Part shown: piece by piece, positions 3,114 to 20,500 of the stretch
Position numbering within the stretch: position 1 is the stretch's first letter
Layout of the letters: every line of letters starts with the position of its first letter
NCBI GenBank assembly: GCA_963842525.1
Contig: CAWJGT010000009.1
Coordinates: 1,440,001 to 1,504,000, forward strand
Direction of reading: 5' to 3'
Length of the DNA stretch: 64,000 bases
DNA from: an uncultured Holophagales bacterium
Lineage (GTDB): Bacteria > Acidobacteriota > Thermoanaerobaculia > Multivoradales > UBA5704
The notes under the pieces: generated by a model
The model's database searches: none
Seen by the model: the letters and a program-made list of their open reading frames with translations, nothing else
What the model was told of the DNA's origin: nothing
Program-made: the position numbers and the translations under genes

Positions 3114-3656
3114 TCATGACTGCGCACCCGCTCCATCGACCACGGCGGGACGACATTCCCGTGCCGACCTGACGCCTGGCTTCCGTCTCTTGCCGAGCTT
3201 CTGCTCCAAGAGATCGCCAAGCACGCCCAGGAGGGCGCCTGTGTCCTCCACATGACCGAGCAGGCTTTCGTCTCGCCTTGTCTCGGCGCCGCAGTAGGCA
3301 GCGATCACGGCACAGAAACCCTCGATGTGCCTGATCTCCGCGACCAGGCCCTCGGCAAATTCTTGAAGGCTTGGAGAGCGACAATGGTCGGTGGATGCCA
3401 GCAGAAGCTGGGATAGAAGCTCTCCAAACTGGCGCGCGCCGTTCTGCTGGTCAGGCGGCAGATGAAGCAGGAAATACTCGTGCAACGGGGCATATTCGTT
3501 GAAATTTCCGGGGCCGGTACGCACGACGTGATCTGCAAGAGCTGTGCTCTGGTGAAGCTCGATGCGCGAACGGATGGTGTCCAAAAGCCTGCCGGTCGAG
3601 TCGCGGAGCTCAGGAAGGTATTGGAATCGGGAATCCTCGACCGACTGTTCCTTCAC
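3114..3656 (-). CDS. Hypothetical protein (180 aa, helical)
   Basis: ORF with natural composition, starting 14 nt downstream of the HhH-repeat gene with a GAGGAG-like SD; no family recognised. Confidence 0.55.
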   Translation of the reverse strand: MKEQSVEDSRFQYLPELRDSTGRLLDTIRSRIELHQSTALADHVVRTGPGNFNEYAPLHEYFLLHLPPDQQNGARQFGELLSQLLLASTDHCRSPSLQEFAEGLVAEIRHIEGFCAVIAAYCGAETRRDESLLGHVEDTGALLGVLGDLLEQKLGKRRKPGVRSARECRPAVVDGAGAQS

Positions 3657-3670
3657 GGCAAGATCTCCTC

Positions 3671-4684
3671 TCAGCGACGATTTGCGCGACGCGCCGTGAT
3701 CCGCTCACAAGCATAAATTTCGTCGTCGGCTAAATGTCGCTCAAGGGTTGCGAGCCGAGCTCTGAGGAGATCGATGGAGACGACTCCCGCGCGGACCAGT
3801 CGCCATGCGGTGCTCCTTTTGATTCCATGACGATGCCATTGCTCAACATGGGAGCACAGCGGACGTCCGAGCAACTCCTCACAAAGCTGGAGGCCGCGGC
3901 TCCCCAGCCCAGGGATGCGGAGTAGATCCTCGCGAGACAGCGCTGCCAAGGCCTTGACCGATTCGATGCCGGCCCGAAGGAGAGCATTGGCGAACGGCAG
4001 AGGCAAACCCTTCTCCCGCCAGTAGGCGGTGATTGAGCGCAGAGGACGGCCCAGAAGCTCCTCACATTTTTCTAGCGTTCTCTCATCGATTCCGCGGATT
4101 GCAAGGAGGTCCTCCCGCGAAGCATGCGCCAAGGCCGTAGTGCTCGTGACCCCAGCTTTTACCAGTCTGGCTGCGCAGCACGGTATGATTCCAGCCTCCA
4201 CCCAGATCCGGGCTTGTGGCATTCTTTCCAAGAAGGTGCGGGGAGTTGGCTTTGAAGGCTTGCCGGGCGAGCCGAATAGGCTCAATAACATCTCCGCCGC
4301 ATGGAGGCCGATCCCTTCGATTCCCAGGAGGTCATCCCTCTGCATACCTCTAAGCTGCTCGTCCGTCCGAATGCCGGCGGCTGCGAGCGCCACTGCGACC
4401 GTGGCTGGGATTCCGCGGGCGATCCAGTAGGGAGCGCAGGTTTCGAAGGATCGGCCCCGAAACCGTTCGATCTGCCTGACTGTCCATGGCCCGACACGTG
4501 GAAGAGCCAGGACAGCTTCCCGTGTGAGCCCCTCAAGCTCGGGGATGGTAACGCCTGCCCGCTTGAGAGTCTTTGCGACTTGTGCCGGCACGCGTCTCCG
4601 CGAGCGAAGCGCTGGAGCATGTCTTTCGCCGGATGCGTTGACAACATGGCTTAATTCCGCCTTCGAGCCCACGCCCAGGAACAT
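3671..4684 (-). CDS. Protein of about 5 tandem helix-hairpin-helix / RNA polymerase alpha-CTD-like repeats
   Basis: Repeated W..GIP..A..L..AGI.S...L....REDLL.I.G(I/L)G...L..CEELLG units; start uncertain (4684 or 4714). Confidence 0.75.
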   Translation of the reverse strand: MFLGVGSKAELSHVVNASGERHAPALRSRRRVPAQVAKTLKRAGVTIPELEGLTREAVLALPRVGPWTVRQIERFRGRSFETCAPYWIARGIPATVAVALAAAGIRTDEQLRGMQRDDLLGIEGIGLHAAEMLLSLFGSPGKPSKPTPRTFLERMPQARIWVEAGIIPCCAARLVKAGVTSTTALAHASREDLLAIRGIDERTLEKCEELLGRPLRSITAYWREKGLPLPFANALLRAGIESVKALAALSREDLLRIPGLGSRGLQLCEELLGRPLCSHVEQWHRHGIKRSTAWRLVRAGVVSIDLLRARLATLERHLADDEIYACERITARRANRR

Positions 4685-4821
4685 AGGGCAGGGCCCTTCG
4701 CGCTCCAAGCACAATTTTGCGAAACGCTCCCAATGGGCGAGCGAATCACTCCTTTTTCCTTTGTCCCTTTTGGTGCCTCTGCGGCAACTTATGTCTAGGA
4801 GAGGTCAAGGGGAGGAGGCCC

Positions 4822-6273
4822 ATGCCGAAGCGAATACCGACCGCCGAAGGTGCCGTGCTGCGTCATTTCCGCCACCGCAAGGGAGCGACCCAGGAAGAGC
4901 TCGCCGAAAAAGCCGGAGTCTCCCCACGGACGATCGAGGGCTGGGAGACAGGGCGCTTTGAGCTGGAGCGCCAGCGGCTGGTGGAGATCCTCTCCCACCT
5001 GAAGGTCCCACCCGAAGCGATCGACGCCGCCCTGTGGTCGGATGACCTGGGGAACCCGCCCGAAGGAGGCTCCTTGTCCCCGGAGGGTGGGCTCGTCGAG
5101 CGGGCCGCCGTGGCCGCGGGCTCGGCGGCGACCAGGACCGCCCGCGCCGCCCTCAAGGCGGACCTGCTGCTCCGGCAGGCTCCCCGGCACCGCCAATGGG
5201 CGCAGGCGAGGTGGTCGCGGATGAAGAAGCTCACCGCCGCGCAGCAGGAGAAGGCAGTTGAAGTACTGCTGGGCGACGAGCGGAGCTGGGCCCTGGCGGA
5301 GCGGCTCTGCCTGGCCTCCGAAGCCGCTGCCGCCAACCGTGCCGACGAGGCCCTGCGACTGGCGCGGCTGGCGGTCCGCATCGCCGAGCACGTGCCGGAT
5401 TCGGGTTTGCGCCCGCGCCTGCTCGGCTGGGTGGAGCCCTTTGCCGCCAACGCCCTGCGAGTGGGGGGAGACCTTGCGGCTTCCTCGGAAGCGCTGGCCC
5501 ATGCCGATGAGCTTTGGGAGCAGGAAGCGGCCGGCGCTCCCGCCGGTCTGTTGGATGAGACACGACGGCTCGATCTTAAGGCGTCCCTCCTGATGTACTA
5601 CGGAAGATTCGAGGAGGTCCATTCCCTGCTCGCGGATGCCATGAAGGGTGTGCGGTCGGAACACACACGGGCGCGTCTTCTCATCAAACAGTCCAACGCC
5701 TTGATCTTTGCCGGCCGATACGAGGCTGCCCTCGAAGTGCTGAAGGAGGCGAAGCCGCTGACCGACGCCAAGGAAGATCCCCGGCTGATTCTGGTCCACG
5801 ACTTCAACAAGACGGTTGGCCTGCTGCACCTGGACCGTTTCCAAGAAGCCGCGCGCCTGCTGCCGTTGGTGGAAGCGCTGACCGATCCAGGCAACGAGCT
5901 GGACGTTGTTCGCCTGCGCTGGCTGAAGGGGCGCACCTGGGCGGGGCTCGGGCGCAGGGCGGAGGCTCTGGCAGCCCTGTCTGAGGTGCGCGGCTACTTC
6001 TTTTCCAAGACGATCGCCTACGACTTTGCCGTGGTGAGCGTGGAGCTGGGGACGCTGTACCTGGAGCAGGGGCGACCCCGCCTGGTCCGCGAGCTGGCCG
6101 ACCAGATGAAGTGGATTTTCATGGGGCAAGGAATCCATGAGAAAGTCCTGGAGGCCCTGGCTCTCTTCTGCCATGCGGCTCAGGCAGAAGAGGCCGAGGC
6201 GGAGTGGACCCGGCGACTCGTCAAATACCTCTACCGCGCCCAGCACAATCCGAGCCTGAAGTTCGAGCTGTGA
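4822..6273 (+). CDS. XRE-family HTH + TPR-like helical-repeat regulator (paralog 1)
   Basis: ATG 4822 after GGAGGAGG; LRHFRHRKGATQEELAEKAGVSPRTIEGWETG HTH followed by ~400 aa of TPR-like helices. Confidence 0.85.
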   Translation: MPKRIPTAEGAVLRHFRHRKGATQEELAEKAGVSPRTIEGWETGRFELERQRLVEILSHLKVPPEAIDAALWSDDLGNPPEGGSLSPEGGLVERAAVAAGSAATRTARAALKADLLLRQAPRHRQWAQARWSRMKKLTAAQQEKAVEVLLGDERSWALAERLCLASEAAAANRADEALRLARLAVRIAEHVPDSGLRPRLLGWVEPFAANALRVGGDLAASSEALAHADELWEQEAAGAPAGLLDETRRLDLKASLLMYYGRFEEVHSLLADAMKGVRSEHTRARLLIKQSNALIFAGRYEAALEVLKEAKPLTDAKEDPRLILVHDFNKTVGLLHLDRFQEAARLLPLVEALTDPGNELDVVRLRWLKGRTWAGLGRRAEALAALSEVRGYFFSKTIAYDFAVVSVELGTLYLEQGRPRLVRELADQMKWIFMGQGIHEKVLEALALFCHAAQAEEAEAEWTRRLVKYLYRAQHNPSLKFEL

Positions 6274-6282
6274 GATGCGAAG

Positions 6283-6314
6283 AGGAAACAACAGGGCGCA
6301 GCGGGGCTGCGCCC
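6283..6314 (-). terminator. Intrinsic terminator of the propeptide gene
   Basis: Stem GGGCGCAGC/GCTGCGCCC (6294-6314) followed on the minus strand by TGTTGTTTCC. Confidence 0.55.
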
Positions 6315-6325
6315 ATTGCCGCGGC

Positions 6326-6670
6326 TCAACTGCCGCAGCGGCCGCTCGGGTCAAGAATGCACCCATTGTCGGCTACGGCCGTCGCTCTGGGCAGGCAGCG
6401 GCCGTTCGGGTCAATGTCACACCCGTTGTCGGTGCCCGCTGACGTGCTTTCCGGCGGCAGGCAGCGGCCGCTCGGGTCAATCCCGCACCCGTTGGAGGCC
6501 CAGGCCCTGTTAAGGTGTGTCCACGCCCGGGCGAAGACTTCCCATAGGGCCGAGCCCGGAGAGACGTGGGGGGTGTGCAGCCCGGGCTCGGCGGCCTGGA
6601 GGGACGGCACCGCCAGGACCAGGCAGAGCACCAACAGCAGGACGGCTTTGGGCAGAAAGGCACGAACCAT
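6326..6670 (-). CDS. Secreted 114-aa propeptide with three C-terminal NGCxxDPxGRC repeats
   Basis: ATG 6670 with AAGGAG SD; signal peptide MVRAFLPKAVLLLVLCLVLAVPSLQA; repeats NGCGIDPSGRC, NGCDIDPNGRC, NGCILDPSGRC. Confidence 0.85.
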   Translation of the reverse strand: MVRAFLPKAVLLLVLCLVLAVPSLQAAEPGLHTPHVSPGSALWEVFARAWTHLNRAWASNGCGIDPSGRCLPPESTSAGTDNGCDIDPNGRCLPRATAVADNGCILDPSGRCGS

Positions 6671-6812
6671 GACCGGCTCCTTTCGGAGCGCGCTCCGCAG
6701 CGGCCTCCCTGGCCGGCCGGGGCGCCTCCGGCCTATAGAGTGACAGGAGTCTGCGTGGAAAACGCACCGGAAACCACCCCAATGGGGGCTCCAACCGAAG
6801 GACGGCGAGGAC

Positions 6813-8305
6813 ATGCGGAGAATGGAATACGACCCGAGGGACCTGGGGCTCACCATCCTGTTGCTGTGCGAGCTTCAGGATATGAGCCTGCGCGAGCTGG
6901 GCCGGCGGTCCGGCATTGACAAGGGATCGATCAACGGCTATGTGAAGGGGACGGTGCGGCCGGTCCCGAGGAATCTGGCCCGGCTTGTGGCGACCTTTCG
7001 GATCACCCCTCTTCGCCTCGAGCGGCTCATCTCCCGGAGCAGAGCTTTCCGCCTCACCTATGAGGACGCCGGCCAGCAGGGTGAAGGCGAGGCCGTGCGG
7101 GCACCGGCCGAAGCACCGAGGGCGCTGGAGGGGAAGATCGGTGGCTCCGCCCTCGACGCAATGGCGCCGTTTCTTCAGGAACTGGCCCGGCTCGACCGCG
7201 GCCCCACGCCCCGCGCCGAGGACCGCCACTGGGCGGAGTCGGTCTGGTCGAGACTAGAGCCGCTCCGCGCCGAGGACCAAAGCGTCGCCGTCGACGTGCT
7301 GTTGGGAGACGAGCGAAGCTGGGCCCTGGCGGAGCGGATCTGCCTTGCGTCTGAAACCGCTGCCGCCAACCGCGCTGACGAAGCCCTGCGCCTGGCGCGG
7401 CTCGCCGTGCGTCTTGCCGAGCACGTGCCCGATGCGGATTTCCGCCCGAGCCTGCTGGCTGGGTAGAGCCCTTTGCCGCCAACGCCCTGCGGGTCGGGGG
7501 CGATCTCGCGGCTTCCGCGGAGGAGCTGGCCCATGCCGATAAGCTGTGGGAGCAGGGGGCGGCCGGCGCTGCCTCCGGTCTTCTGGATGACACCCGCCGG
7601 CTCGATCTGAAAGCGTCCCTCCTGATGTACTACGGCAGATTCGAGGAGGTCCACGCCTTGCTCGCGGATGCCATGCAGGCTGCACGGTCGGAGCACGAGC
7701 GGGCGCGTCTTCTCATCAAAAAGGCCAACACCTTGATCTTCGCCGGCCGGTACGAGGCTGCCCTCAAAATGTTGGCCGAGGCAAAGCCCCTGATCGACGC
7801 CAAGGACGATCCTCGCCTACACTTGGTCCACGACTTCAACAAGACAGTGAGCCTGCTGCACCTGGACGGTTTCCGGGAAGCCGAGCGCCTGCTGCCGAAG
7901 GTGGAGGCGTTGACCGATCCGGGCAACGAGCTGGACGGCGTGCGCCTGCGCTGGCTCCAAGGGCGCACCTGGGCGGGGCTCGGCCGCCGGGCGGAGGCCC
8001 TGGCAGCCCTGGCCGCAGTGCGGGAATACTTTCTGACCGAAGAGATCGCCTACGACTTTGCCGTGGTGAGCGTCGAGCTGGGCACCCTCTACCTGGAACA
8101 GGGCCGCTCCGGGCCGGTCCGCGAGCTGGCCGACCAGATGAAGTGGATTTTCGTGGGGCAAGGAATCCATCACGAAGCCCTGGCGGCGCTGGCGCTCTTC
8201 TGCCATGCGGCCCAGGCCGAAGAGGCCCAGGCGACATGGACCCGGCGGCTCGTCAAGTACCTTTACCGGGCGGAGCACGATCCGCGGCTGCAGTTCGAGC
8301 CGTGA
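6813..8305 (+). CDS. XRE-family HTH + TPR-like regulator (paralog 2), 1-nt frameshift near 7458
   Basis: MSLRELGRRSGIDKGSINGYVKG HTH; from VLLGDERSWALAER onward nearly identical to paralog 1; CTGCTGGCTGGGT lacks one C relative to CTGCTCGGCTGGGT of paralog 1. Confidence 0.82.
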
Positions 8306-8397
8306 GCCTCGGAGAGGTGCGAGCAGGAGGAGTCGGAACGAAACACAATCCGCCCCACCCTCGTATTGCCCTTCGAATCCAAGGAGGGCTCTCTCTC

Positions 8398-8952
8398 ATG
8401 ACCCATCTGTTGCACGATCTTCCCTGGCCGTGCGCACGCACGGTGGGCAGGCCGGCCTCCTGGAGGCGGTGCAGAAGCAGGTCTGGGCGGTCGACCCCCA
8501 GCAGCCAATCACCGATGTGGTGACCATGGAGCGGATCGTGGCGCGTTCGGTCGGCGCCTACCGCTTCAATATGGCCCTGATGGGCGGCCTGGCTTTCCTG
8601 GCACTGGTGCTCGCGGCCGTGGGGATCTACGGCGTGCTGTCCTACCTGGTGCACCAGAGGACGCGCGAGATCGGGGTCCGCATGGCTCTCGGCGCCACGG
8701 CCGGGCACGTGCTGCGGATGGTGGTGCGCCAGGGACTGATCGCGGTCGGCATCGGCGTGGCGATCGGCCTGGGGGCCGCTTTCGGGCTGACGCGCCTGAT
8801 GGCGAGCCTGCTGGTCGGCGTCAGCGCGACCGATCCGCTGACCTTCGTGGCTCGCGCCGCTGGTCCTGGCTGCCGTGGCCCTCTTCGCCACCAGCCTCCC
8901 GGCCCGCCGCGCCAGCCATCTCAGCCCGGTTCTGGCGTTGCGGCGGGATTGA
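8398..8952 (+). pseudogene. ADOP/MacB-FtsX ABC permease remnant with a large internal deletion
   Basis: AGGAGG + MTHLLHDL (typical N-terminus) joined out of frame to the C-terminal LAAVGIYGVLSYLVHQRTREIGVRMALGA...PARRASHLSPVLALRRD; another frameshift near 8852. Confidence 0.8.
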
Positions 8953-8959
8953 GGCTCCG

Positions 8960-9325
8960 GCGGCGGGCATTGGTCCCGCGGTGGCGCGCAGCGGTCCCGC
9001 AGGACCGGCAGTGTCCGCCGCGGTACCATGGACGTTGCCCGCGGTGGCTGGCAGTGGTCCCGCGGGACCGGCAGTATTCGCTGCGGCACCATGGAGGTTC
9101 CCCGCGATGGTTGGCAGTGGTCCCACGGGACCGTCAGTGCTCGCCGCGGGACCATGGACGTTGGCCGCGGTGGCAGGCAGTGGTCCCGCAGGACCAGCAG
9201 TGTTCGCCGCGGCATCATGGGCATTCGCCGCGGTGGCAGGCAGTGGTCCCACGGGACCACCGGTGCTCGCCGCGGGACCATGGTCGTTGGCGGCGGTGAC
9301 GCGCAGTGGTCCCGCGGGCCGTGAT
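8960..9325. repeat. Degenerate 63-bp tandem repeat (about 5.5 units, 21-bp sub-periodicity)
   Basis: G(T/C)GGTCCC recurs at 8991, 9054, 9117, 9180, 9243 and 9306. Confidence 0.9.
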
Positions 9326-9338
9326 CTTGCGGCGGCTG

Positions 9339-9857
9339 TCAGTGGGTGGGATCGCCTGTCCGATGGTCTCCGATCTGCGCTTGCAGGAACTCGTGGACTG
9401 CGGCCCGGGCTTCCGGGCTCTCGGTCGTGATGCGGACCCGAGCCCCCTTCCCGATCTCCTCGTAGCGGTAACGGATCGCGTCCTTGAGGCGGATCATCTC
9501 CGGCACGCCGGGGAGGACGCGACTGTGGATCTCGGCCGGCATGGAGAAGTCGCCCTTGGCGAAGCTCTCGGCCATCTGGGCGAGGTGCTGCCGGATCTGC
9601 CCGAGGCTCGCCGCATCGGCCGCATTGCCCGCATCGGTGGCCTCGACCTGGATCACGCCGCCATCGGGCTCGACCAGGAAGTGGTGGGTCGTCCGCGTGT
9701 GCTCGAAGCCCATGACCTTGTCACCGCGTTGGTCGAGAGCCTGCGCCGCCTCGGCCTGGTGTTGAGCATGGAGCGGACAAGCCGGTTCCTGGGCGGCAAG
9801 GGCCGCCATCGGCAGGACGAGGGACATCAGGAAGACGGCGACAGACTTTTTCGTCAT
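9339..9857 (-). CDS. Secreted His-containing protein, putatively metal-binding, co-transcribed with MerR
   Basis: Signal peptide MTKKSVAVFLMSLVLPMAALA; CPLHAQH, RGDKVMGF..TTHHF, AAVHEFL.AQIGDH; TGATG overlap with merR. Confidence 0.75.
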   Translation of the reverse strand: MTKKSVAVFLMSLVLPMAALAAQEPACPLHAQHQAEAAQALDQRGDKVMGFEHTRTTHHFLVEPDGGVIQVEATDAGNAADAASLGQIRQHLAQMAESFAKGDFSMPAEIHSRVLPGVPEMIRLKDAIRYRYEEIGKGARVRITTESPEARAAVHEFLQAQIGDHRTGDPTH

Positions 9858-10342
9858 CACACTCTCTCCTTTCGAAGTTTCGGTCGATGCGGATTCTCCG
9901 GAAGCTCCGTTGCGCCGGCGGCCAGCGCGTCGAGCAACCCGGCGCGCCGGTCCGGCCCAGCCTCGGCGAGCCGCCGGTCCCAGTCCGCGAGCAGCACGCG
10001 CAACGCATCGCGCAGCACGGCGAGCTCGCGGAGCTGGTTCTCGACCGCGGCAAGCTTGTCGGTCCCGAGCTCCCGCACCTTGCGGCACGGCACGCCGCCG
10101 CGGTCGCGCTCGGCAAGGATGCGAGACAGCTCGTCCACCGTGAAGCCGGCCGCCAGCACGCGCCGGATCCAGAGGACACGCTCGACAGCTTTCGGGGGAT
10201 AGACGCGGTAGCCGTTGGACAGCCGCTCCGGGCGGGGGAGGAGGCCCTTGCGCTCATAGAAGCGAAGGGTGTCCTTGCTCACACCGATGCGGCGCGCGAG
10301 CTCGCCTGCCTTCAGGGGTTGGCCAGGGGTCTCGTCCGCCAT
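9857..10342 (-). CDS. MerR-family heavy-metal-type transcriptional regulator
   Basis: GELARRIGVSKDTLRFYERKGLL..ERLSNGYRVY; single Cys in GVPCRKV. Confidence 0.92.
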   Translation of the reverse strand: MADETPGQPLKAGELARRIGVSKDTLRFYERKGLLPRPERLSNGYRVYPPKAVERVLWIRRVLAAGFTVDELSRILAERDRGGVPCRKVRELGTDKLAAVENQLRELAVLRDALRVLLADWDRRLAEAGPDRRAGLLDALAAGATELPENPHRPKLRKERV

Positions 10343-10348
10343 GGAGAG

Positions 10349-10380
10349 AGGGTAAACCATGGAGCTGGTTCCAGGGTCAA
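10349..10380 (-). promoter_or_regulatory. MerR-type promoter/operator (ZntR-like, 20-bp spacer), probably leaderless
   Basis: Minus strand TTGACC-CTGGAACCAGCTCCATGGTT-TACCCT with an internal dyad; ATG follows the -10 box after 6 nt. Confidence 0.75.
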
Positions 10381-10391
10381 GAGGGGGGACG

Positions 10392-13300
10392 CTACTCGAA
10401 TTTCGCAGTATCATCCAACTGGGGCGAGGGGTTCGGCTCTCTTGTGTATCTGAGCAGTAGCGGGTGACCGGGAAACGCCTTGGCAGCCTCATCCCAGGCC
10501 GATGCAGTGCCCTCCTCGAGGAGGCTGCGCAAGAACTCGTCGATAGAGAGATCCGAGAAAGGTGAGACAGTTCTGTGGGCAGGCTCGGTCAGGAACCAGA
10601 GGGTCATGTTGCCTGCCAGGCTCTCTATCGATGGTGAGCCTAGGGCGCGACGGAGATCCTTGCGCCGTGGGACTGGATCGGTGACGGGAACTGGCCTGTT
10701 CTCCTCGGTTATCTCATAGCCTCCAAGAAATTCTGCGAGCCCTGCCAGTTTTTCAGCTTCCCGGGTGGAGAAGACGGGAACGGGCGCAGCCCATATGCCA
10801 TCGGCGGCGGCGACCCAGATGACCCGACCGTCAGAGCTGAAGAGAACATTCTTGAAGGTCGGGAAATCAAAGTTAGCAAGCACCTGTCCCGTGGCAAGGT
10901 CCCAGAGCTGCATTGGTGCGGCAAGAAGAACACGGCGGCCATCTGGACTAAAAAATCCGCCCTGGGAACCATCCACCTGGAACGGCTCAGCGATGGGCTT
11001 CACCGTCTCCATGTCCCAGGCGGTCAGGGCCGTGGTGGTCAGCGTTGACAAGTGGCGGAGCTTTGGATCGAATTCGACTTGGACGACGGAGGCCGGATGC
11101 AGCATCGCCCCGGCAACCTTCTTACCATTGGTACTATCCCAGATCATCACAGCACCTTCCGTAGTGCCGGTAGCAACCCAGAGTCCATCTGGACTCACGG
11201 ATATTGCTGGCGGATCCGGGTTGTATTGTCGCCGCTCGGAACCGAACCGAAGTGGAGGTCCCAGTGGCTTTCCGGTCCGAGTCTCCCAGATGCGGGCCGT
11301 ATCTTCCGACGCCGTCAAGAGACGCGTCCCATCGGAACTGAGCTGCATCCTCAAGATAGAAGGGGCGTGGTGGATTGTCACAGGAAGCGGTCGGCCGCTA
11401 ACAACCTCCCAGCTCTGTACCTGATCGTCGGTCGCAACGGCGAGGATGCCTCCTGTGCAAGCGAAGGCGCTTCCTTCCCGGTCGAGCGCTACAAGAGGTC
11501 CCTGGATGTCTCCTCGTCGGAGATCAAAGAAACCTACGCTTCTGCCGGATGTTGCTACAACAGTTTTGCCATCATTACAGAACGCAACCGGCCTCGCCGC
11601 TGTGGCGCTGTTTCCAAAGGCTGCTCTGAATTTGGGGAATGAGAATAGAAAGAGCCTCCTCTGGGGGCGGACGGGCTCGGCATCCCAGGTACGAATCGTA
11701 CCGTCCTCAGACACCGTCACGACACGTCGGCTCCTGCCAATGAATTTCGCTTGCTCCACTTCGTGCCATGGCTCGGCAATGGGTGTACCAGTGCGAGTAT
11801 CCCACAGAAGGACATTGCCATGGGAGCGCGCCAGCAGGAGCTGGCCATCGGCGCTCCATTCTGTGGATGTAGAAGAAAGCAGGGATGCGATCATCTCCAT
11901 GGCAAGAGAAGAACTACGGAACTGCGAGTTTAGGGGAGAGACTTTTAAATCTCTGAAGAGGAGACGAAAGCCGGCCGGGCTGAGCTGTGGCGGTGGAAAG
12001 GAAAAGTCAAGATCAGAGGCTTTTGCCGCGAAGTCGCCGCCTGGAGTCGGAAGCTGGAACTGCCCGCGACTGGTAGGAGCCCACCAGCCATGTTCCGGCT
12101 CCTCGCGGGTCGCCGTCTGCGTAGTGAGATCGAAGATCAGCGTGCTGTTATTCCCCAGCAACAGAATTCTGCGGCTGTCCGGGCTAAACCGAAGGACATG
12201 GGCCTCGGCGGCAATGCGCATGCCCTCACGTCGATCCCCGGCGGTTGAAACGAAGTACACGCGACGAGCTGCTGCAATCGAGAGCCACTGCTCGTCAGGG
12301 CTGAAGTCAGCCATCAGGGCTAAGTCCTCGGCTCGAAAGGACGGTTTTACCGGGCGACCCGTTCGAGCATCCAGAATACGCACCAAGTCGTTCCTGTAGG
12401 TTTCAGATGTAGCTACGGCAAGGAGGCGGCCTTGACCGCCAATCGCAAGGATTCGAGCTCGGGCGCCTAGAGTGATTTCGCTCCCCACCGCCCGAAGCGA
12501 CCAGGTTTCATATACGCGAGCTGTACCAAAGCGAGAGATCATTACAAAAAATCGCCCGTTCTCACTGAATTGTACAGTCCTGTCTTCATCGTTGTGCAGC
12601 AATGCAATGGGGAAGGGCCAGGTTCGCTGAAGGAGCTGAGTGGTGAGAAGGCTTTGAGCTTCCAGGCTCTCCGGATTTCGCCGCAGGGCTCGAGCCAGAT
12701 AGGCAAGTGCTTGGTCGGCTCGATCCTTTTGTAGTAGGATTCGCGCTTCCCTGAGGTCGGCATCTGCGAGGAAGTGCCGGTTCTCGCTCTGGGCTTGGAA
12801 ACCCCAGACGAGCAGCCCAGCAATGGCGAGAACAAGGACAGCTGCCGTCGCATAGCCCCACAGCGTGCGTTTCCGGCTCTTTTGAGCCACCGCCATTGAC
12901 CTTTCGATGAACCGCACGAGGATCGGGCGTAGCGAGGCATGATCGAGAGAAAGAAGGCGAGCGGCTTGGTCGAGCGCCTTGCCGGGAGGGATCAGCAGAC
13001 TGTCATCCTGTCCCTCCTGCGCCCACCGGGCTGCATTCTGATCCAGCCAAGCTCGGAATTTCAGGAACGCCCGGTCCTCTGCGAGCCAGGCGCGGGTCCG
13101 AGGCCAATGGGTGAGCAATGCCTCGTGAGTAATACCTACGAGCGGATTTCCATCGTCTGTGGAGCCGGTGACAAAGATCCGTGCTTCTACGAAGGCTTTG
13201 ACTAGCTTTCGCATTTCATTCGTGGTAAGTGACTCGAACGACACCTGCTGTGAGACCGGCGCGAACTCGGCCTCTGGCCGCACGGTGACCAGAAGGCGGA

Positions 13301-14942
13301 GAACGTAGAATAGTGCCGCCTGGACCTCGAGTGGCTGCTGGAGGAAAATCTCCTCCGCCCGGTTCCCGATTGCTCCTTCAAGCCCTCCGAGATTTTCATA
13401 GGCCGACAACGTTAGAAGTTGCTCGGGTGTTCGCCGTTGGTAGAGCTGTTCGAGCAAGAACTCCAACAGAGGCAGGCTTTCGGGCCGCCCTACCGCCGCA
13501 TCACGCAGGACATCATCTAGCCTCTCACCCTTGTCACGGCGGTCCTCGAATTTCAGGCCTGCGGCTTCGGCTGGACGGCGGATGATCTGGCCGATGCCAG
13601 CCGCATCCGGTGGTGGCAGATGATAGAGGCCAGAGCCGGCCATGAGATCGCGGAGCCCGGAGACCTCGTCACAATGAGCATAGAAGTCACTGCGCAGGGT
13701 CGCGATCACCCAGACCCGTCCACTTGAGACGAGGGAACTCAGCGCAATGACGAGTCCCCGGCGGGCCTCCGGCGTCACCTCGGCGAGAGTAAAGATCTCC
13801 TCCATCTGGTCAACGAACAAGGCGAGTTGCGCCTCCGGTTGTCGGTCCAGACGTTGTTTGCTCTGCTCCTTGGCCGCGGCCTGCGAGAGGGCTCCCTTGA
13901 CGAGGAGGTCGGCGGCAGACGGCTCCTCCTGCAGGCGACACGCGATCCCCGCGGCTGGCGTTCCGTCTGCCGCGAGCTCGGGCAACGCGCCGGGTTGGAG
14001 CAGAGAGGCGGCCAGCCCCTCGGAGAGGTTGCCGGACGACTGGTGGGGGACGAAGAGTGCGGTCCTCCAGAGGCCTACGCCCTCAATCACTCCTGGCTCG
14101 GTGAGCAGCGGGAGGACTCCGGCCCGTACCAGCGACGATTTGCCGCTGCCGCTTGCACCGAGGACGAGCACGAACGGGTTTCCTGCGACCGCCTGGGCAC
14201 GCCATGCGTCCAGGACGTGGCTGATCTCGCGCGTCCGCCCAAAGAACACAGCGGCGTGGGCACGCTCGAAAACTTCAAGCCCGCGGAAGGGAGAGTCGCC
14301 CGTCCAGGTCGGCTGGGAAACCCGCCGGTCTTCCAGGTCCGCCGGAGGGGCACGCCGATCGAGCAACCGCCGGAGGTGCACTTCCAGGACCGCTTCGAAT
14401 TCCACCGGGCTTGCGAAGGGGTGGAAGGCGGCGCGCAGGGAGCCGTCCTCGTTTTCGCACCAGCCCTCAAGAAAGTGATCGAGAGCCTTCTTCTGCGCAA
14501 GCCGCCGCTCCGCTGCTTCAGTGTCAGCGAGGCTCACCATGGCTTCTGTAGTTTTACGGTAGACGAGGAGGTCCGGGCGACCCTGGGTTAAGCGCCAAGC
14601 CTCTGCGGCGGTCTCAAGCTCGTATTGGGTGCCGGAGTCGTACCGGCTGCCGTCCGGGCGGGTGATGTTGGGCGGCAATCGAGTGCCGAGGCGCGCCCAC
14701 AGGATGCAGACGACGATGTCCGCCTCGGCCGGAGAGGGCAACTGCGACTGGAAGTCCTGCGTTGCACTGAGCGGCTCGTGCTCCCAGAAGATGCCGGCCA
14801 GATCCGCCCGTGGTGCGAATTCGTTCTTGAGCCGCTCGATGACCCGCTCCGCGAGCACGCGCTCCTCGGCCACGTCCCCGGGTGACGAGACGAAGATCTT
14901 CAGGATGGGTTGCCGCGGGTCGAATATCTGTTCGGAATCTAT
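10392..14942 (-). CDS. DUF4062/TIR-like domain - STAND (nSTAND1-type) NTPase - TM - WD40 protein (receptor 1)
   Basis: KIFVSSPGDVAEER upstream of the listed GTG (frame open to ATA 14942), SPFRGL, Walker A GASGSGKSS, Walker B LFVDQMEE, hydrophobic helix, WD40 repeats; start uncertain. Confidence 0.88.
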   Translation of the reverse strand: MDSEQIFDPRQPILKIFVSSPGDVAEERVLAERVIERLKNEFAPRADLAGIFWEHEPLSATQDFQSQLPSPAEADIVVCILWARLGTRLPPNITRPDGSRYDSGTQYELETAAEAWRLTQGRPDLLVYRKTTEAMVSLADTEAAERRLAQKKALDHFLEGWCENEDGSLRAAFHPFASPVEFEAVLEVHLRRLLDRRAPPADLEDRRVSQPTWTGDSPFRGLEVFERAHAAVFFGRTREISHVLDAWRAQAVAGNPFVLVLGASGSGKSSLVRAGVLPLLTEPGVIEGVGLWRTALFVPHQSSGNLSEGLAASLLQPGALPELAADGTPAAGIACRLQEEPSAADLLVKGALSQAAAKEQSKQRLDRQPEAQLALFVDQMEEIFTLAEVTPEARRGLVIALSSLVSSGRVWVIATLRSDFYAHCDEVSGLRDLMAGSGLYHLPPPDAAGIGQIIRRPAEAAGLKFEDRRDKGERLDDVLRDAAVGRPESLPLLEFLLEQLYQRRTPEQLLTLSAYENLGGLEGAIGNRAEEIFLQQPLEVQAALFYVLRLLVTVRPEAEFAPVSQQVSFESLTTNEMRKLVKAFVEARIFVTGSTDDGNPLVGITHEALLTHWPRTRAWLAEDRAFLKFRAWLDQNAARWAQEGQDDSLLIPPGKALDQAARLLSLDHASLRPILVRFIERSMAVAQKSRKRTLWGYATAAVLVLAIAGLLVWGFQAQSENRHFLADADLREARILLQKDRADQALAYLARALRRNPESLEAQSLLTTQLLQRTWPFPIALLHNDEDRTVQFSENGRFFVMISRFGTARVYETWSLRAVGSEITLGARARILAIGGQGRLLAVATSETYRNDLVRILDARTGRPVKPSFRAEDLALMADFSPDEQWLSIAAARRVYFVSTAGDRREGMRIAAEAHVLRFSPDSRRILLLGNNSTLIFDLTTQTATREEPEHGWWAPTSRGQFQLPTPGGDFAAKASDLDFSFPPPQLSPAGFRLLFRDLKVSPLNSQFRSSSLAMEMIASLLSSTSTEWSADGQLLLARSHGNVLLWDTRTGTPIAEPWHEVEQAKFIGRSRRVVTVSEDGTIRTWDAEPVRPQRRLFLFSFPKFRAAFGNSATAARPVAFCNDGKTVVATSGRSVGFFDLRRGDIQGPLVALDREGSAFACTGGILAVATDDQVQSWEVVSGRPLPVTIHHAPSILRMQLSSDGTRLLTASEDTARIWETRTGKPLGPPLRFGSERRQYNPDPPAISVSPDGLWVATGTTEGAVMIWDSTNGKKVAGAMLHPASVVQVEFDPKLRHLSTLTTTALTAWDMETVKPIAEPFQVDGSQGGFFSPDGRRVLLAAPMQLWDLATGQVLANFDFPTFKNVLFSSDGRVIWVAAADGIWAAPVPVFSTREAEKLAGLAEFLGGYEITEENRPVPVTDPVPRRKDLRRALGSPSIESLAGNMTLWFLTEPAHRTVSPFSDLSIDEFLRSLLEEGTASAWDEAAKAFPGHPLLLRYTREPNPSPQLDDTAKFE

Positions 14943-15912: not shown

Positions 15913-17517
15913 CTAGGTTCCGTCGCCGAGCACCGGCTCGCCGATCAGGTGCTGGACGACCGGCCGCCCATCCCCCACATGGAATGCCCGCGCACGCTCC
16001 TCAATGTCCCGGTCCGCCACGGTGACCCTCTCGTGCTGCCGGAGGTGCTCGGCCCAGGAGCTCACCAGGAAGATCTCCGTGTATCGATCAGGTGCCGCCG
16101 CGTCGTTGAAGAGCCCCCATTGCAAGGCGCCGTCGCGCAGGCGGATGCGGCGGACCTCGCGCATGGCCGCTGCGAACTCGCGGGCGCGCTGCGGATCGAT
16201 CTGATACTCGACGGTGACCAGGACAGGACCGCGGTCCGGCTCGGGGTCGTGGTGGACGATGGGAGCGGGCCACTGGCGGGACGGAGCGAGGTTGAGGCCT
16301 TCTCCGGAGCGCAGGTGGACCTTCCAGGTGAGCACCAGGCCCACGATCATGCCGGCGGCCGAAATCCATAGAGCCTGCGAGACGCCGGTACGGTCGGCGA
16401 CCAGGCCCCAGAGAGTGCTGCCGCCGGCAAGGCCGCCGAAGAAGATCAGCATGTAGACCGAGAGCGCCCGGCCGCGCACCCAGGAGGGGACGAGGGTCTG
16501 GATCGCGACGTTGAGGCTGGAGAGCAGAGCTAGCCAGGCGCCGCCGGCGAGCAGGAGGGCGACGCAGACCACCCAGAAGAGTGGGACCCAGGCCAGCACC
16601 AGCGTGGCCGCCGCGAAGACCAGGGTGGCCACGGCCACAACGCCGTCCATGGAGCTGCCACGCCGCAGGTGGGGGAGGGCGAAGGCTCCGGCTACCGCTC
16701 CGATGCCCAGACAGCCGAGGAGGAGCCCGTATCCGGCCGGTCCCTGGCGGAGCACTTCACGCGCCACCACCGGCAGCAGGGCCCAGAGCGAGCTGGCGCA
16801 GAACACGAATGAGCTGCCCCGCACGATGACCGCGATCACCTCCGGGGCATGGCGGACATAGCGGAGCCCGGTGCGCATAGCCCCCAGGAAGCGCTCGCCG
16901 GGCAGGACCGACTCGCGCGCCGGCCGCCGCCAGAAGAAGAGGACCAGCAGGACTCCCAGAAAAGACGCAGCGTTCAGGAGGAATGTGACTGCCGGTCCGG
17001 TCGCGGCTACAAGGAGGCCGCCGAGAGCCGGGCCGGCCGCGCGGGCGATATTGAAGCCGACGCTCTGAACGGTGATGGCGGCGGGCAGGTCCTCGCGCGG
17101 CACGATCTCCGGGACGATCGCCTGCCAGGCCGGCCCGTTGAGCGCCGCGCCGAGACCGAGCAGGAACGTGAAGGTCAGGAGCCCCCAGGGAGTTACGGCT
17201 CCAAACAGCGTGACCAGCCCGAGCCCGGTTGCGCAGGCAAGCATCCAGCTCTGGGTGACGAGCAGCAGCCGGCGGCGGTCCAGCACGTCGGCCAGCGCCC
17301 CGGCTGGCAGAGACAGCAGGAACATCGGCAACGACGTGGCCGCCTGGACCAGGGCCACCAGGATGTTGGACGTCGCCAGGGAGGTCATCAGCCACGCGGC
17401 GCCGACGCTCTGGAGCCAGGTGCCGACATTCGACGCCAGATTGGCGGTCCATAGCGCCCGGAACAGCGGATGTTGTAGGGGGTGCCAGGGGGAGTGGGGG
17501 CGAGCGGGCTCGCTCAC
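15913..17517 (-). CDS. MFS transporter (MFS_3/DUF894 type with C-terminal soluble domain)
   Basis: LFRALWTANLASNVGTWLQ, PAGALADVLDRRRLL, about 12 TM helices, RRIRLRDGALQWG..WAEHLRQHER tail; GTGA overlap with receptor 2. Confidence 0.92.
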   Translation of the reverse strand: MSEPARPHSPWHPLQHPLFRALWTANLASNVGTWLQSVGAAWLMTSLATSNILVALVQAATSLPMFLLSLPAGALADVLDRRRLLLVTQSWMLACATGLGLVTLFGAVTPWGLLTFTFLLGLGAALNGPAWQAIVPEIVPREDLPAAITVQSVGFNIARAAGPALGGLLVAATGPAVTFLLNAASFLGVLLVLFFWRRPARESVLPGERFLGAMRTGLRYVRHAPEVIAVIVRGSSFVFCASSLWALLPVVAREVLRQGPAGYGLLLGCLGIGAVAGAFALPHLRRGSSMDGVVAVATLVFAAATLVLAWVPLFWVVCVALLLAGGAWLALLSSLNVAIQTLVPSWVRGRALSVYMLIFFGGLAGGSTLWGLVADRTGVSQALWISAAGMIVGLVLTWKVHLRSGEGLNLAPSRQWPAPIVHHDPEPDRGPVLVTVEYQIDPQRAREFAAAMREVRRIRLRDGALQWGLFNDAAAPDRYTEIFLVSSWAEHLRQHERVTVADRDIEERARAFHVGDGRPVVQHLIGEPVLGDGT

Positions 17518-20500
17518 GGGAGTTCCGTCGGAGGTAGGGGCCGCGGGTGCTTGCGGAGCAGCGGGTGACCGGGGAAGGCGGCGGCGGCCTCGTCCCAGGC
17601 TTCGGGGGTGCCTTCCTCCAAGCGGCTGCGGAGGAATTCTTCCACCGTTTGTTTCAGGGCTGGCGAGATCGTCCGTTGATCGGGATCGGCGAAAAACCAC
17701 CGGATCAGGGCGGCGGCGGTGGGCTCGTCTCGCGGCGCGCCGTCCGTCTGCTGCCGCAGGGCCTCCCGGCTTGCAATGAGGTCGGCCAGCGGCACCGGCC
17801 TTGCGTCCTCGTCAAGGGTGTAGCCCCCCACGGCCTCGGCCCAGCGGGCGAGCAGCTCTCCGTCCCGGGCCGGCAGGATCGGGACGGGAAGGACGTGGAT
17901 CCCATACTGGGTCGCGATCCAGAGAAGCTGGCCATTTGGGCTCAGCCGCGCGATGGACGACTCGTGCTCAACAGGAGCCCGGAGCAGCCGGCCTGTGCGG
18001 GCGTCCATCAGCCAGACCAGATCGCCAGTTTGGATCAGCAGGCGGGCGCCATCGGGGCTCGCATGGACGGAATCGACCTCCTGCTCCAGCTCGATCTCAC
18101 TGAGCGGGCGCCCCGTCCGCGGATCCCTCACCAGGACCTTCTTGTCGCTCCAGGTCAGGAGGCGGCCCGCTTCGAATCGGACCCGGACTCGCTGCGGGTG
18201 ATGGAAAGGGCCGGCGATGCTGGCACCCGATCGAGCATCCCAGATCCGCAGATCCCCACTCTCGGTGACCGTCGCGATCCGCTCACCGTCCTCGCTGAAA
18301 TCGACCAGGTCCACGGTGCTGTCGTGGGGCATGGGCGACCCGAGAGGGTCCCCGCCGGGAACGCTCCAGAGGCGGGCTGTGCCGTCCTCGGAGCTCGTGA
18401 CGAAGCGGTCGCTTCGCGGGCTGAACTCGAGAGCCGGAGTCGAGCCCTGTGGGCCTGCCTTCAAGACGCCGGTCCGGTGGCCCGTTTCGAGATTCCAGAG
18501 ATCGATCGAGCCCGTCGTGTCCTCCAACAAGGCGAGGACCTTGCCGTCAGGACTGAGCGAGGACGCTTCCGCCTCTCGCAGCACTGCGAGCATTCCGGCG
18601 GGAGAGACCCGAGGCCAGGCAGGCAGGCCGCTGCCGGTATCCCAGACCTGCGGCCCGGCCGGGCTCGTCCGCGAGCCGCTGACCAGGCGGCGCCCATCGT
18701 GCGTGAGGAGGAGGAGACCCGTGTCCTTCTCCCCCAAAGGAATCGGGGCCCCCACCTGCCGGCCTGAGTCGGTATCCAGAAAGCGCATGCTCTCTCCGCT
18801 CCAGAGGCCCAGCCGGCTCCCATCCCGGCTGAAGAAGGCAGTCACCAGGCCCGTGCTCGCCAGCAGCTCCGTGCGGGCCGGCGCCGGCGCGAACGTCCAG
18901 AGGCGCACCACGCCGTGCTCGTCTACGGTCACGATCCGCCGAGCGCCCGCGACGAACCGGGCCGCAGCGCAATTGCAAGGGACTTCGCCGGCAAGGCTCC
19001 CGGCGAATGGGCTTACGAGAGCAATCCGCTTCGGGGACATGGCCAGGGCGAGCTGGCCGTCGCGGCTCAGCGAGACCTCGGAGACATCGTCCCCGATGTT
19101 GACCTCGGCAAGGCGCTCAAGATGGCTGAGACGCCAAACATCGATCTTGTCCAGGAGGGAGCGGGCTGTCAGGAGCCGGTCGTTCTCAGAGGTGAGCCAG
19201 AGCCGAAGCTGGGCCCTTTCGGCGCTCACGCCCGGGAGATCGCGAAGGAACCGGCCCGTGGCCGCATCCCAGAGCTTTGCTCCGAGGCCAACCGTCACGA
19301 CCCGACGGCCGTCCGCGCTGAGCGCAGCCGCATCGATGAGAACGGGTTGCTGCTCGAGGGCGGCCTGGTGACCGCTCACGAGGTCCAGGACGGTCAGGGA
19401 GTTCTCGTTGTACGCCAGGAGCTTCCGGCTGTCGGGGCTGAATTCCAGGGGTTGCTCCCTGAACCAGGCCAGTGGGATCTTGTGGGTCTTCCCTGTGTCG
19501 ACCTCACGCACGGCGAGGGGCTCGAGAGGCGGACCGACAACCAGCCAGCGTCCGTCCGGGCTCAGGGCGCCTTGGGCGTCGGCGGATTCGAGGAGCCGAG
19601 GGGTCCCTGTATCCCAGAGCTGAAGCTCTACCTTCCCCAGGATGGTGCGAATCAGGATTCTCTGACCGCCCTGACCGATGTCCACCGAGGTAATATCCTC
19701 TTTTCGCGGGATCGCGCGTCCAATCTGCCGGAACGTCTGGGAGTCCCAGACGCGGACCCGGTCGCTCTCGAACGTGACAAACTGCAGACCATCGTCGCCA
19801 AGAAAGATTTCCGTGCCTTCGGGGAACCGTTTCTCTGCGACCAACTGCAACCACCTCCTGCCGAGGAGGAGGTCGGTCAGGAGGCTCTGGGCTGGGATGC
19901 TGCCCCGGTCTGAACGCAGAGCACGGGCCAGGTAGGCGAGAGCATGAGCGGGCGAGGTGCTCTGGAGGTTCCATGCCCTCTCGACGTCTGAGCTTGCCAA
20001 TGCCTTCTGCGCCTCTTTCTCCGAGGACTGGACGCGCAAGGTCAGGACGGTCACGCCGAGGAGGAGGACGGCCATCAAGGCGGTGACGACCCGGCTCCGT
20101 CGCAGCTTCCGCCGCGACTCCCGCGCCCATTCTACCGCCTCCCGCCGCGCCGTCTCCGCCCGTTCCCGGGCCTCCCGTTCGCGCCGGCTGTCGCGGCTCT
20201 TGCGGATCACGCCGGCCAGCACGTCATGGGTCAGCTCGACGCGCTGCGCGCCGCCGCGGTCCTCGATGCGCAGCAGGCGGCGATCGGTCAGTTTGTGCAG
20301 AACCTCGCAGATCGCGGGATCGTCCTGCGCGCTCTCCAGGGCCACGGAGTCGCGGAGGCCCTTGGGGGTGAGCAGCCGCTCCTCAATGAACGTGCGTACT
20401 TCCGAGGCAAGATCGACGAGGCTGCGCTCGTAAAAGTCGGACAGGATCTCTTCCCGGTTTCCTTCGAGCAGCTCGGCGGTGATCTTCGGCAGGCTGCGAT

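Follow-up and report, generated by a model that had tools for sequence, protein, structure and literature searches.

A candidate RRNPP-like peptide-sensing cassette in Thermoanaerobaculia that appears to pair one sensor domain with different output domains

This study concerns a three-gene locus at positions 4822 to 8305 of the window, that is, the whole 64,000-nucleotide stretch analyzed from the genome of an uncultured Holophagales bacterium (assembly GCA_963842525.1, contig CAWJGT010000009.1). The locus comprises a regulator with helix-turn-helix (HTH) and tetratricopeptide-repeat (TPR) domains (regulator A), a gene for a small secreted peptide precursor, and a second, broken regulator of the same architecture (regulator B). 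We interpret the locus as one copy of a self-contained RRNPP-like peptide-sensing cassette that has expanded in Thermoanaerobaculia (Acidobacteriota), and give this interpretation an even chance of being correct. Three features fit a ligand-receptor pair best: the gene layout, an exported precursor with several cores and, most of all, sensor domains that match cassette by cassette beneath exchangeable output domains. The cassette is therefore called RRNPP-like; judged by its sequence, it does not appear to be a member of the RRNPP family. The most informative result is that a cassette is tracked by its sensor domain and not by its output domain. The genes and gene parts of the locus are as follows.

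4822..6273, plus strand: regulator A, 483 amino acids, ATG at 4822 and stop at 6273 (open reading frame and translation)
6326..6670, minus strand: secreted precursor, 114 amino acids (translation, family alignments and GC content at third codon positions, GC3)
about 6590-6670, minus strand: hydrophobic, Sec-type signal peptide of the precursor (from the translation)
6494-6559, minus strand: conserved amphipathic W-rich helix of the precursor, residues 38-59 (predicted)
6461-6493, 6395-6427 and 6335-6367, minus strand: three DNGCxxDPxGRC cores
6813..7466, plus strand: N-terminal piece of regulator B, with a second XRE-type HTH, a linker and the first TPR helices (Pfam HTH_3, 7e-6)
7460..8305, plus strand: C-terminal piece of regulator B in a shifted frame, the TPR sensor domain, 281 codons

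The N-terminus of regulator A is an XRE-type HTH (residues about 8-58) that matches, at residues 10-69, the Pfam families HTH_31 (E 1e-10) and HTH_3 (E 6e-9). The AlphaFold2 (AF2) model, folded with 42 homologues, had a mean predicted local distance difference test score (pLDDT) of 89.4 and a predicted template modelling score (pTM) of 0.75. It shows five HTH helices, one long helix that serves as linker (87-134) and, at 139-473, some 18 helices in pairs that form a TPR-like superhelix; Foldseek and VIA-align were concordant on this call, and TPR_12 and similar Pfam families are present in relatives of regulator A. Neither a signal peptide nor a membrane segment was visible in the sequence. 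Full-length homologues have 476-493 residues. Regulator A and the peptide gene are convergent, and 53 nt separate their stop codons (6273 versus 6326-6328).

Regulator B begins at 6813 and points away from the peptide gene. Its first frame ends at the TAG at 7464-7466 because of a 1-nt deletion (7455-7466) relative to regulator A and to an intact orthologue, P0024, a protein of 498 residues from a metagenome. P0024 is 85% identical over both pieces, which correspond to its residues 1-214 and 216-495. The nucleotide identity between regulators A and B is 86, 93 and 76% at codon positions 1, 2 and 3, respectively, and the window also contains undamaged genes of about 1500 codons. Regulator B is probably a recently broken gene paralogous to regulator A, an assembly error being less likely; in the window, only regulator A is intact.

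An earlier, sequence-only reading had proposed two XRE-TPR regulators flanking a secreted multi-core peptide in a probably acidobacterial host. All three genes are present as open reading frames (ORFs) with the expected translations, Pfam HTH matches and the AF2 model bear out the HTH plus TPR architecture of the regulators, and the precursor carries a Sec-type signal sequence and three cores. The homologues are labeled Thermoanaerobaculia, in agreement with the assumed host. The peptide gene is divergent from the second regulator, as that reading had it, and is also convergent with the first; it has its own Shine-Dalgarno (SD) sequence and, by position, a terminator-like hairpin at 6294-6314. 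The second regulator is indeed an HTH and TPR paralogue, except that the copy here is frameshifted.

The two regulators of the window share their sensor and not their DNA-binding domain. Their identity is 83% in the final 280 residues and 74% in the 78 before these, and no significant similarity was found over the first approximately 120 residues. The same holds for all five intact adjacent A/B pairs in the genome, in which the TPR domains are 70-98% identical and the HTH domains 13-25%. In 11 cassettes from other genomes, the mean identity within a cassette was 68% for the TPR domain (range 46-83), 22% for the HTH and 19.5% for the linker. Overall, the A and B regulators of one cassette are 46-98% identical in the TPR and 12-30% in the HTH. 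Between cassettes, the mean TPR identity was 40.5%, and 2.9% of 655 pairs reached 60%.

The phylogenetic trees show the same mosaic. In an HTH tree of 41 rows, the labels for convergent or divergent position required 3 changes, compared with a mean of 14 after shuffling, and none of 500 shuffles was as low; these label counts describe a pattern and not a probability, because related rows share labels by descent. In the TPR tree, the A and B regulators of one cassette were sisters in all three testable cassettes, with values of 99-100 in the Shimodaira-Hasegawa-like approximate likelihood ratio test (SH-aLRT). The patterns of the two trees therefore indicate that the A/B split is old and that the sensor halves have been kept alike within each cassette.

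A second architecture in the genome extends this mosaic. Twenty-six peptides, 22 of them without cysteines, are encoded upstream of, and co-directionally with, a TPR protein. Pfam detected no HTH in these proteins (TPR matches only in 10 of 10 scanned), and their short non-HTH N-terminus, with CxxC in 8 of 15, has no Pfam match. In the co-directional cassettes L126-L135, the TPR protein lies downstream of a cysteine-free peptide ending in ...DPNG or ...DPDG. The same TPR domain thus occurs with HTH A, with HTH B or with a non-HTH N-terminus; the TPR domain and the peptide gene are the constant parts, and the output module is exchangeable. A reading of the non-HTH N-termini as zinc anti-sigma domains (HxxxCxxC) was rejected, since HxxxCxxC occurred in 1 of 15 and CxxC alone in 8 of 15, and Pfam gave no match.

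Peptide and regulator genes are linked in a near-obligate manner. The genome (9.95 Mb, 34 contigs, 67% GC) was searched with profiles in six-frame translation, which yielded 51 ORFs for peptides and, for regulators, 174 ORF pieces that merged into 136 loci, 88 of them near full length. Forty-seven of the 51 peptide ORFs lie at most 600 bp from a regulator locus, and only 3.0% of the genome is that close to one. A heuristic for small secreted ORFs with DPxG found partners for 14 of the 41 regulators without a profile match. Among the heuristic finds is a tandem array at C9:424000-437600, in which six or more regulator paralogues are each accompanied by a small secreted ORF; these ORFs carry a single C-I-D-P-x-G-x-P-x-P-C loop and form a subfamily missed by the peptide profile. 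Identical cassette copies were also noticed at contig ends (C9:2489-5884 and C18:1109-5371; C8:1-1890 and C10:31393-33923), so that repeats appear to break the assembly and true copy numbers may exceed our count.

The linkage recurs in other genomes. In a first set of loci found through the peptide, a convergent regulator was located 28-90 bp from the peptide stop in 9 of 9, with a second, divergent regulator in 6 of 9. Across five genomes of four genera, all 30 peptide-first loci had a regulator, which was convergent in 26, and the full triple was present in 22. Starting from the regulator in about 30 records of metagenome-assembled genomes (MAGs), we found a peptide at 41 of 52 loci, in the order regulator (+), peptide (-), regulator (+) at 38 and with the first regulator only at 3; the 11 peptide-less loci were mostly short or partial matches, often near a contig end. 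The recurring unit in Thermoanaerobaculia genomes is the triple of regulator A, convergent peptide gene and divergent regulator B.

With the peptide profile, every one of the 24 same-family genomes gave matches (2-53 each), as did 6 of 16 genomes that belong to the order's other families. In a sample of 400 genomes of the phylum, only two genomes, both of the same family, were matched, in a search that was less sensitive because only 12 candidates were scored per genome. The regulator profile reached further, to 48 of 61 genomes of the order (source genome included) and 10 of 12 families, and was not found in families f8 (0 of 6 genomes) or f10 (0 of 5). All named homologues come from Thermoanaerobaculia MAGs, where they are annotated as “hypothetical”, “TPR repeat” or “XRE family” proteins. 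Within the genus, the closest DNA match to the cassette was 67% identical, and no close DNA orthologue suitable for footprinting was found. No protease, transporter or modifying enzyme was linked to the cassettes: no flanking ORF family occurred at more than 4 of 43 cassette clusters, and most of these “families” were spurious high-GC frames. Peptide and regulators thus appear to be the whole system.

The precursor gene has the properties of a genuine coding sequence. Its GC3 was 0.82 in frame versus 0.66 and 0.59 in the other two frames, the regulators having 0.80-0.83, and an SD sequence, AAGGAG, lies 8 nt upstream of its ATG. The ORF stops two residues past the last cysteine. In close orthologues the signal peptide, the tryptophan helix and the cores are kept and the spacers vary. 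The W-rich helix is the most conserved part outside the motif in alignments of the subfamilies with and without cysteines alike, with W57 retained in 90% or more of the family rows. The AF2 model (63 sequences; pLDDT 63, pTM 0.30) shows this helix and three small cysteine-bracketed hairpins joined by linkers with pLDDT below 50, which suggests beads on a string and not a globular protein. Pfam, NCBIfam and the ESM Atlas gave no name for the precursor.

The universal motif of the family is a repeated [ILVM]-D-P-x-G near the C-terminus, often at the very end. Across 132 distinct precursors, D-P-x-G is the invariant part, with a hydrophobic residue and a G-x pair before it; cysteines occupy the two flanking positions in 235 and 190 of 271 cores, and the cysteine pair is a trait of a subfamily rather than of the whole family. 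Two to six cores were present in 106 of these precursors. In 118 of them the ORF ends 0-8 residues after the last DPxG, and 19 stop exactly at the G. The cores are cassette-specific: at four variable positions, cores of one precursor matched in 47% compared with 19% between precursors, and none of 1000 shuffles reached 47%. In the six-frame translation of the genome, C..DP.G.C occurred in only 26 stop-to-stop frames, and all 16 with at least two copies were family members, so the motif GC..DP.G.C is far from chance occurrence. This design is compatible with a C-terminal signal that would be released by processing.

The following non-coding elements accompany the genes.

6294..6314, no strand assigned: GC-rich hairpin between the convergent stop codons, with a 9-bp stem (8 GC pairs) and a 3-nt loop, followed by TGTTGTTT
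6675..6728, minus strand: conserved peptide-gene leader that forms an imperfect, GC-rich palindrome around GGCC-N5-GGCC, directly upstream of the SD sequence
6774..6791, no strand assigned: short GC hairpin or palindrome with a CCCC-AAT-GGGG core, between the peptide gene and regulator B (MAFFT alignment of 11 intergenic regions of the subfamily)

Read on the minus strand, the hairpin at 6294-6314 looks like a terminator for the peptide gene. Its T-tail is weak, and the region contains two terminator-like sites, compared with 2.9 expected from shuffles; because this count is below the expectation, the call rests on position and not on statistics. The leader comprises about 60 nt upstream of the SD sequence of the peptide gene and is conserved over cassettes and genera (consensus ...GCGCCCnCGCGGCCATGGnGGCCGCnGnGGAGCGnCCTCC...AAGGAG), in the cysteine and the cysteine-free subfamilies. 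Only leaders from other genomes, 73 in number, were used to build a DNA profile, which found 10 sites in the genome at E<=0.1, among them the window site with E 5e-4. Nine of the ten are immediately upstream of a peptide ORF, and each of the ten has a regulator no more than 800 bp away. The element could be either an operator or an RNA element. The hairpin at 6774-6791 is kept in related cassettes with changes on both arms. By eye, we also spotted a perfect 5-bp inverted repeat, TGCGT-N5-ACGCA, at 6752-6766 in the shared promoter region of the peptide gene and regulator B.

A scan of 4500-8600 for sigma-70 promoters gave 0 sites. A sigma-54 reading of a conserved CTG[GT]CAC box, noticed by eye, was rejected, as the spacing falls short by one base and the GG varies. 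In a search of sequencing runs, no RNA run containing the locus was found, and only two soil DNA runs had small word shares, 0.13 and 0.06.

The architecture of the cassette is that of known peptide-receptor systems. In the RRNPPA scheme as outlined in PMC9765709, an adjacent small gene encodes a Sec-exported propeptide whose functional part is C-terminal. The cassette likewise combines a TPR-type C-terminal domain in a receptor of cytoplasmic type, as the model and sequence of regulator A suggest, with an N-terminal HTH output domain (Pfam, both regulators) and an adjacent small gene for an exported propeptide, whose signal sequences are visible in the alignments. The precursor also has the features of a multi-core Sec precursor: a signal peptide, tandem conserved cores and variable spacers. 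In structure alignments of the TPR superhelix, NprR-NprX gave Z 18.1 over 299 residues, the phage phi105 Rap with its peptide Z 18.1, pLS20 Rap Z 16.6, RapH Z 15.8, RapI Z 15.4, PlcR-PapR Z 15.3 (an alignment that covers the HTH as well as the TPR) and AimR Z 15.2. PMC10075063, PMC9765709 and PMC12700828 treat RRNPPA as a family of Firmicutes and Gram-positives, and cytoplasmic peptide-receptor quorum sensing as a trait of Firmicutes and their mobile elements.

By architecture, the closest system appears to be NprR-NprX, which, like PlcR-PapR of the Bacillus cereus group, combines an XRE HTH at the N-terminus and a TPR superhelix at the C-terminus in a cytoplasmic one-component regulator, next to a small gene for a Sec-exported propeptide. 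In contrast to both, the cassette described here has no specific sequence homology to them, a diderm acidobacterial host, a convergent gene order, two receptors per peptide, a multi-core precursor with putative disulfide brackets and about 50 copies in a single genome. In Rap-Phr systems, phr lies downstream of and co-directional with rap, and Phr peptides are linear pentapeptides or hexapeptides, unlike the arrangement and peptides found here. Rap-Phr systems of Bacillus and its mobile elements resemble the cassette in their many diversified receptor/propeptide pairs per genome and in receptors without an HTH, as in our co-directional TPR proteins. Some Rap-Phr propeptides contain more than one pheromone copy, as noted in PMC9765709, which is a likeness to the multi-core precursor. 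However, Rap proteins target response regulators and not DNA, and they have no sequence relationship to the cassette.

The closest case of two receptors for one signal appears to be Rgg2/Rgg3-SHP of streptococci, in which a pair of paralogous receptors reads the same short pheromones and produces different outputs, a likeness to regulators A and B. The repeat domains of Rgg are shorter, however, and the genes do not form one triple cassette with homogenized sensors; SHPs are also exported by a dedicated transporter and not by Sec. Eukaryotic multi-copy hormone precursors such as yeast alpha-factor likewise consist of a signal peptide, a pro-region and tandem near-identical cores with spacers, although they depend on eukaryotic processing machinery and membrane receptors and have no evolutionary link to the cassette. 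A full-text search of the literature, covering listings, abstracts and selected passages, found no description of such a system, in line with the sequence-only reading, which had recognized none with this peptide motif.

That reading had also presented the locus as a single new RRNPP-like module and proposed that peptide ORFs and regulators should co-occur across genomes. Co-occurrence was borne out in the source genome (47 of 51) and in the three sets of other loci (9 of 9, 30 of 30 and 41 of 52). The idea of a single module must be replaced by that of a cassette family with about 50 copies in the genome. The proposed motif, GC..DP.G.C, proved far from random, and its cysteine bracket is confined to a subfamily, the family-wide motif being the repeated [ILVM]DPxG. 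The RRNPP-like character stood as to architecture and linkage and not as to specific sequence homology, and the fold match is to TPR proteins in general.

On our interpretation, a small gene would give rise to a Sec-exported precursor, the signal peptide would be removed, and extracytoplasmic cleavage would then release short peptides, one or several per precursor, with the framework x-G-x-x-[ILVM]-D-P-x-G. In the cysteine subfamily, each peptide would be closed by a disulfide between the flanking cysteines. The peptide would accumulate outside the cell and return to the cytoplasm through an oligopeptide-type importer. The genome encodes three SBP_bac_5 (OppA/DppA-like) binding proteins, none linked to cassettes, so peptide import is possible. 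The returned peptide may dock in the concave groove that the TPR domain forms in the cassette's own regulators and alter the activity of their N-terminal output domains, with a possible effect on transcription and a possible role in cell-density sensing. Regulators A and B would thus sense one cassette-specific peptide through near-identical sensors and act at different DNA sites through unrelated HTH domains.

Several results weigh against this interpretation. No homology to a described RRNPPA family was detected, sequence profiles finding generic HTH and TPR similarity only: the NCBIfam AimR model gave E 0.1 and 11.6 bits, compared with a cut-off of 70 bits, over the HTH only; among PDB sequences, NprR (5dbk) had E 0.011 over 80 residues and Rgg (4yv6, 5w4m) E about 3e-4, again over the HTH only. 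The TPR feature is necessary but not specific for RRNPP, because the fold match is a generic one: the eukaryotic TPR proteins APPBP2 (Z 22.3) and LGN (Z 19.2) match equally well or better, and Foldseek ranked PlcR 25th (E 2e-3, TM 0.20-0.30). Even after the heuristic search, 27 of the 88 near-full regulators in the genome have no detected peptide; of seven regulators from other families of the order, one has a convincing adjacent small ORF with DPxG and six have none. Up to 28 of the 88 near-full loci are split into more than one ORF piece, a count that includes some neighbours merged in error. In a diderm envelope the peptide must cross the outer membrane both ways, and no dedicated route was found. 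The likeness of TPR domains in adjacent paralogues could arise by gene conversion or from a need to dimerize, with no peptide involved; regulators A and B are 76% identical at third codon positions. Likewise, internal duplication, if recent, would also be expected to make the cores of one precursor alike.

Among the alternatives, the one that survives best, although we consider it unlikely, is that the peptide is itself an extracellular or periplasmic end product, such as a loop with antimicrobial or bacteriocin-like action, a peptide that binds metals or surfaces, or a tag for kin recognition. The regulators on either side would then only control its expression, and the TPR domain would sense something else or oligomerize. 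A Sec signal combined with disulfide loops is typical of stable extracellular peptides, the peptide gene and regulator B have a divergent promoter region in common, and the conserved palindromic leader could be an operator. The fast turnover of cassettes, whose closest same-genus DNA match is 67% identical, and the many broken copies are as seen in conflict or recognition loci; moreover, no importer linked to the cassettes was found. However, neither was an immunity, export or modification gene, and this explanation leaves unaccounted for both the within-cassette matching of the TPR domain, as opposed to the DNA-binding domain, and the peptide partner of the TPR proteins that lack an HTH. The leader is also a poor fit for a cassette-specific operator, being conserved though the HTH domains of the cassettes are only about 22-33% identical.

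An improbable alternative makes the leader the main control point, as an RNA switch or a site for a shared factor, with regulators and peptide merely adjoining and not related as ligand and receptor. The specificity of the leader profile for peptide genes described above accords with this idea. In addition, 103 of 122 leaders are more stable than their own mononucleotide shuffles, the window leader being predicted to form a hairpin at 6690-6725, and an anti-SD CTCC, modestly enriched, is located 3-16 nt upstream of GGAG in 24 of 95 leaders versus 225 of 2232 control starts. Against it, no strand asymmetry was found, the sense strand being more stable than the antisense in 58 of 122, and perfect hairpins were only modestly enriched (44 of 122 versus 242 of 1500 controls). 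RNAalifold gave no consensus structure on the raw 79-row leader alignment, which has many gaps and, in a few rows, the wrong start codon, and Rfam gave no match, the two scores (E 0.33 and 0.82) being far below the gathering scores. Nor does control by the leader account for the near-obligate gene linkage.

It is very improbable that the regulators report synthesis or export of the precursor, their TPR domain recognizing it before processing and inside the cytoplasm, for instance at its W-rich helix: the high conservation of this helix in both subfamilies and the freedom from outer-membrane crossing and re-import speak for such sensing, but it leaves unexplained the repeated cores with cassette-specific variable positions and the end of the ORF right past the last motif, and we know of no precedent for TPR-HTH regulators of this kind.

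Several other features of the window were observed around the cassette. Past the end of regulator B, at the place expected for a second peptide gene, lies an isolated C-terminal fragment of an FtsX-type permease (8589-8813; Pfam FtsX, 1.9e-12); beyond it, a 63-bp tandem repeat is present in 5.5 copies (8975-9318). The region looks decayed or rearranged. Divergent from regulator A, a gene at 3671-4714 (minus strand) encodes a protein of 347 residues with repeated units resembling helix-hairpin-helix motifs and the RNA polymerase alpha C-terminal domain (HHH_5, 5e-17; RNA_pol_A_CTD, 1.5e-11), which is not among the recurrent neighbours of the cassettes. An ORF of 180 codons at 3114-3656 (minus strand) has no family match; by eye, a look-alike frame belongs to a flanking-ORF family of 3 of 43 cassette clusters, for example at C7:87253-87999. 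Farther downstream, two proteins of about 1500 residues with an nSTAND1 NTPase and WD40 propellers (10392-14873 and 17514-22061, both minus strand) flank an MFS_3 transporter (15913-17700), and a MerR regulator is encoded at 9857-10492.

Somewhat short of an even chance, in our estimate, is the wider proposal that Thermoanaerobaculia use RRNPP-type peptide communication in a diderm envelope, whether invented independently or diverged beyond recognition, with dozens of private DPxG channels in one genome. Each channel would have a precursor with several copies of a short peptide, often disulfide-closed, and its own TPR sensor, wired to at least two interchangeable output modules (HTH A, HTH B or a non-HTH N-terminus). 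If this is correct, the peptide, the sensor and the HTH would be small, self-contained and orthogonal parts that lend themselves to tests in a heterologous host, although the organisms that own them are uncultured. The proposal would extend genetically encoded peptide signaling to a diderm phylum abundant in soil, with on the order of 50 parallel channels in one genome. It would also provide a natural case of one sensor domain wired to alternative outputs and explain a large block of the “hypothetical” and “TPR repeat” genes of Thermoanaerobaculia.

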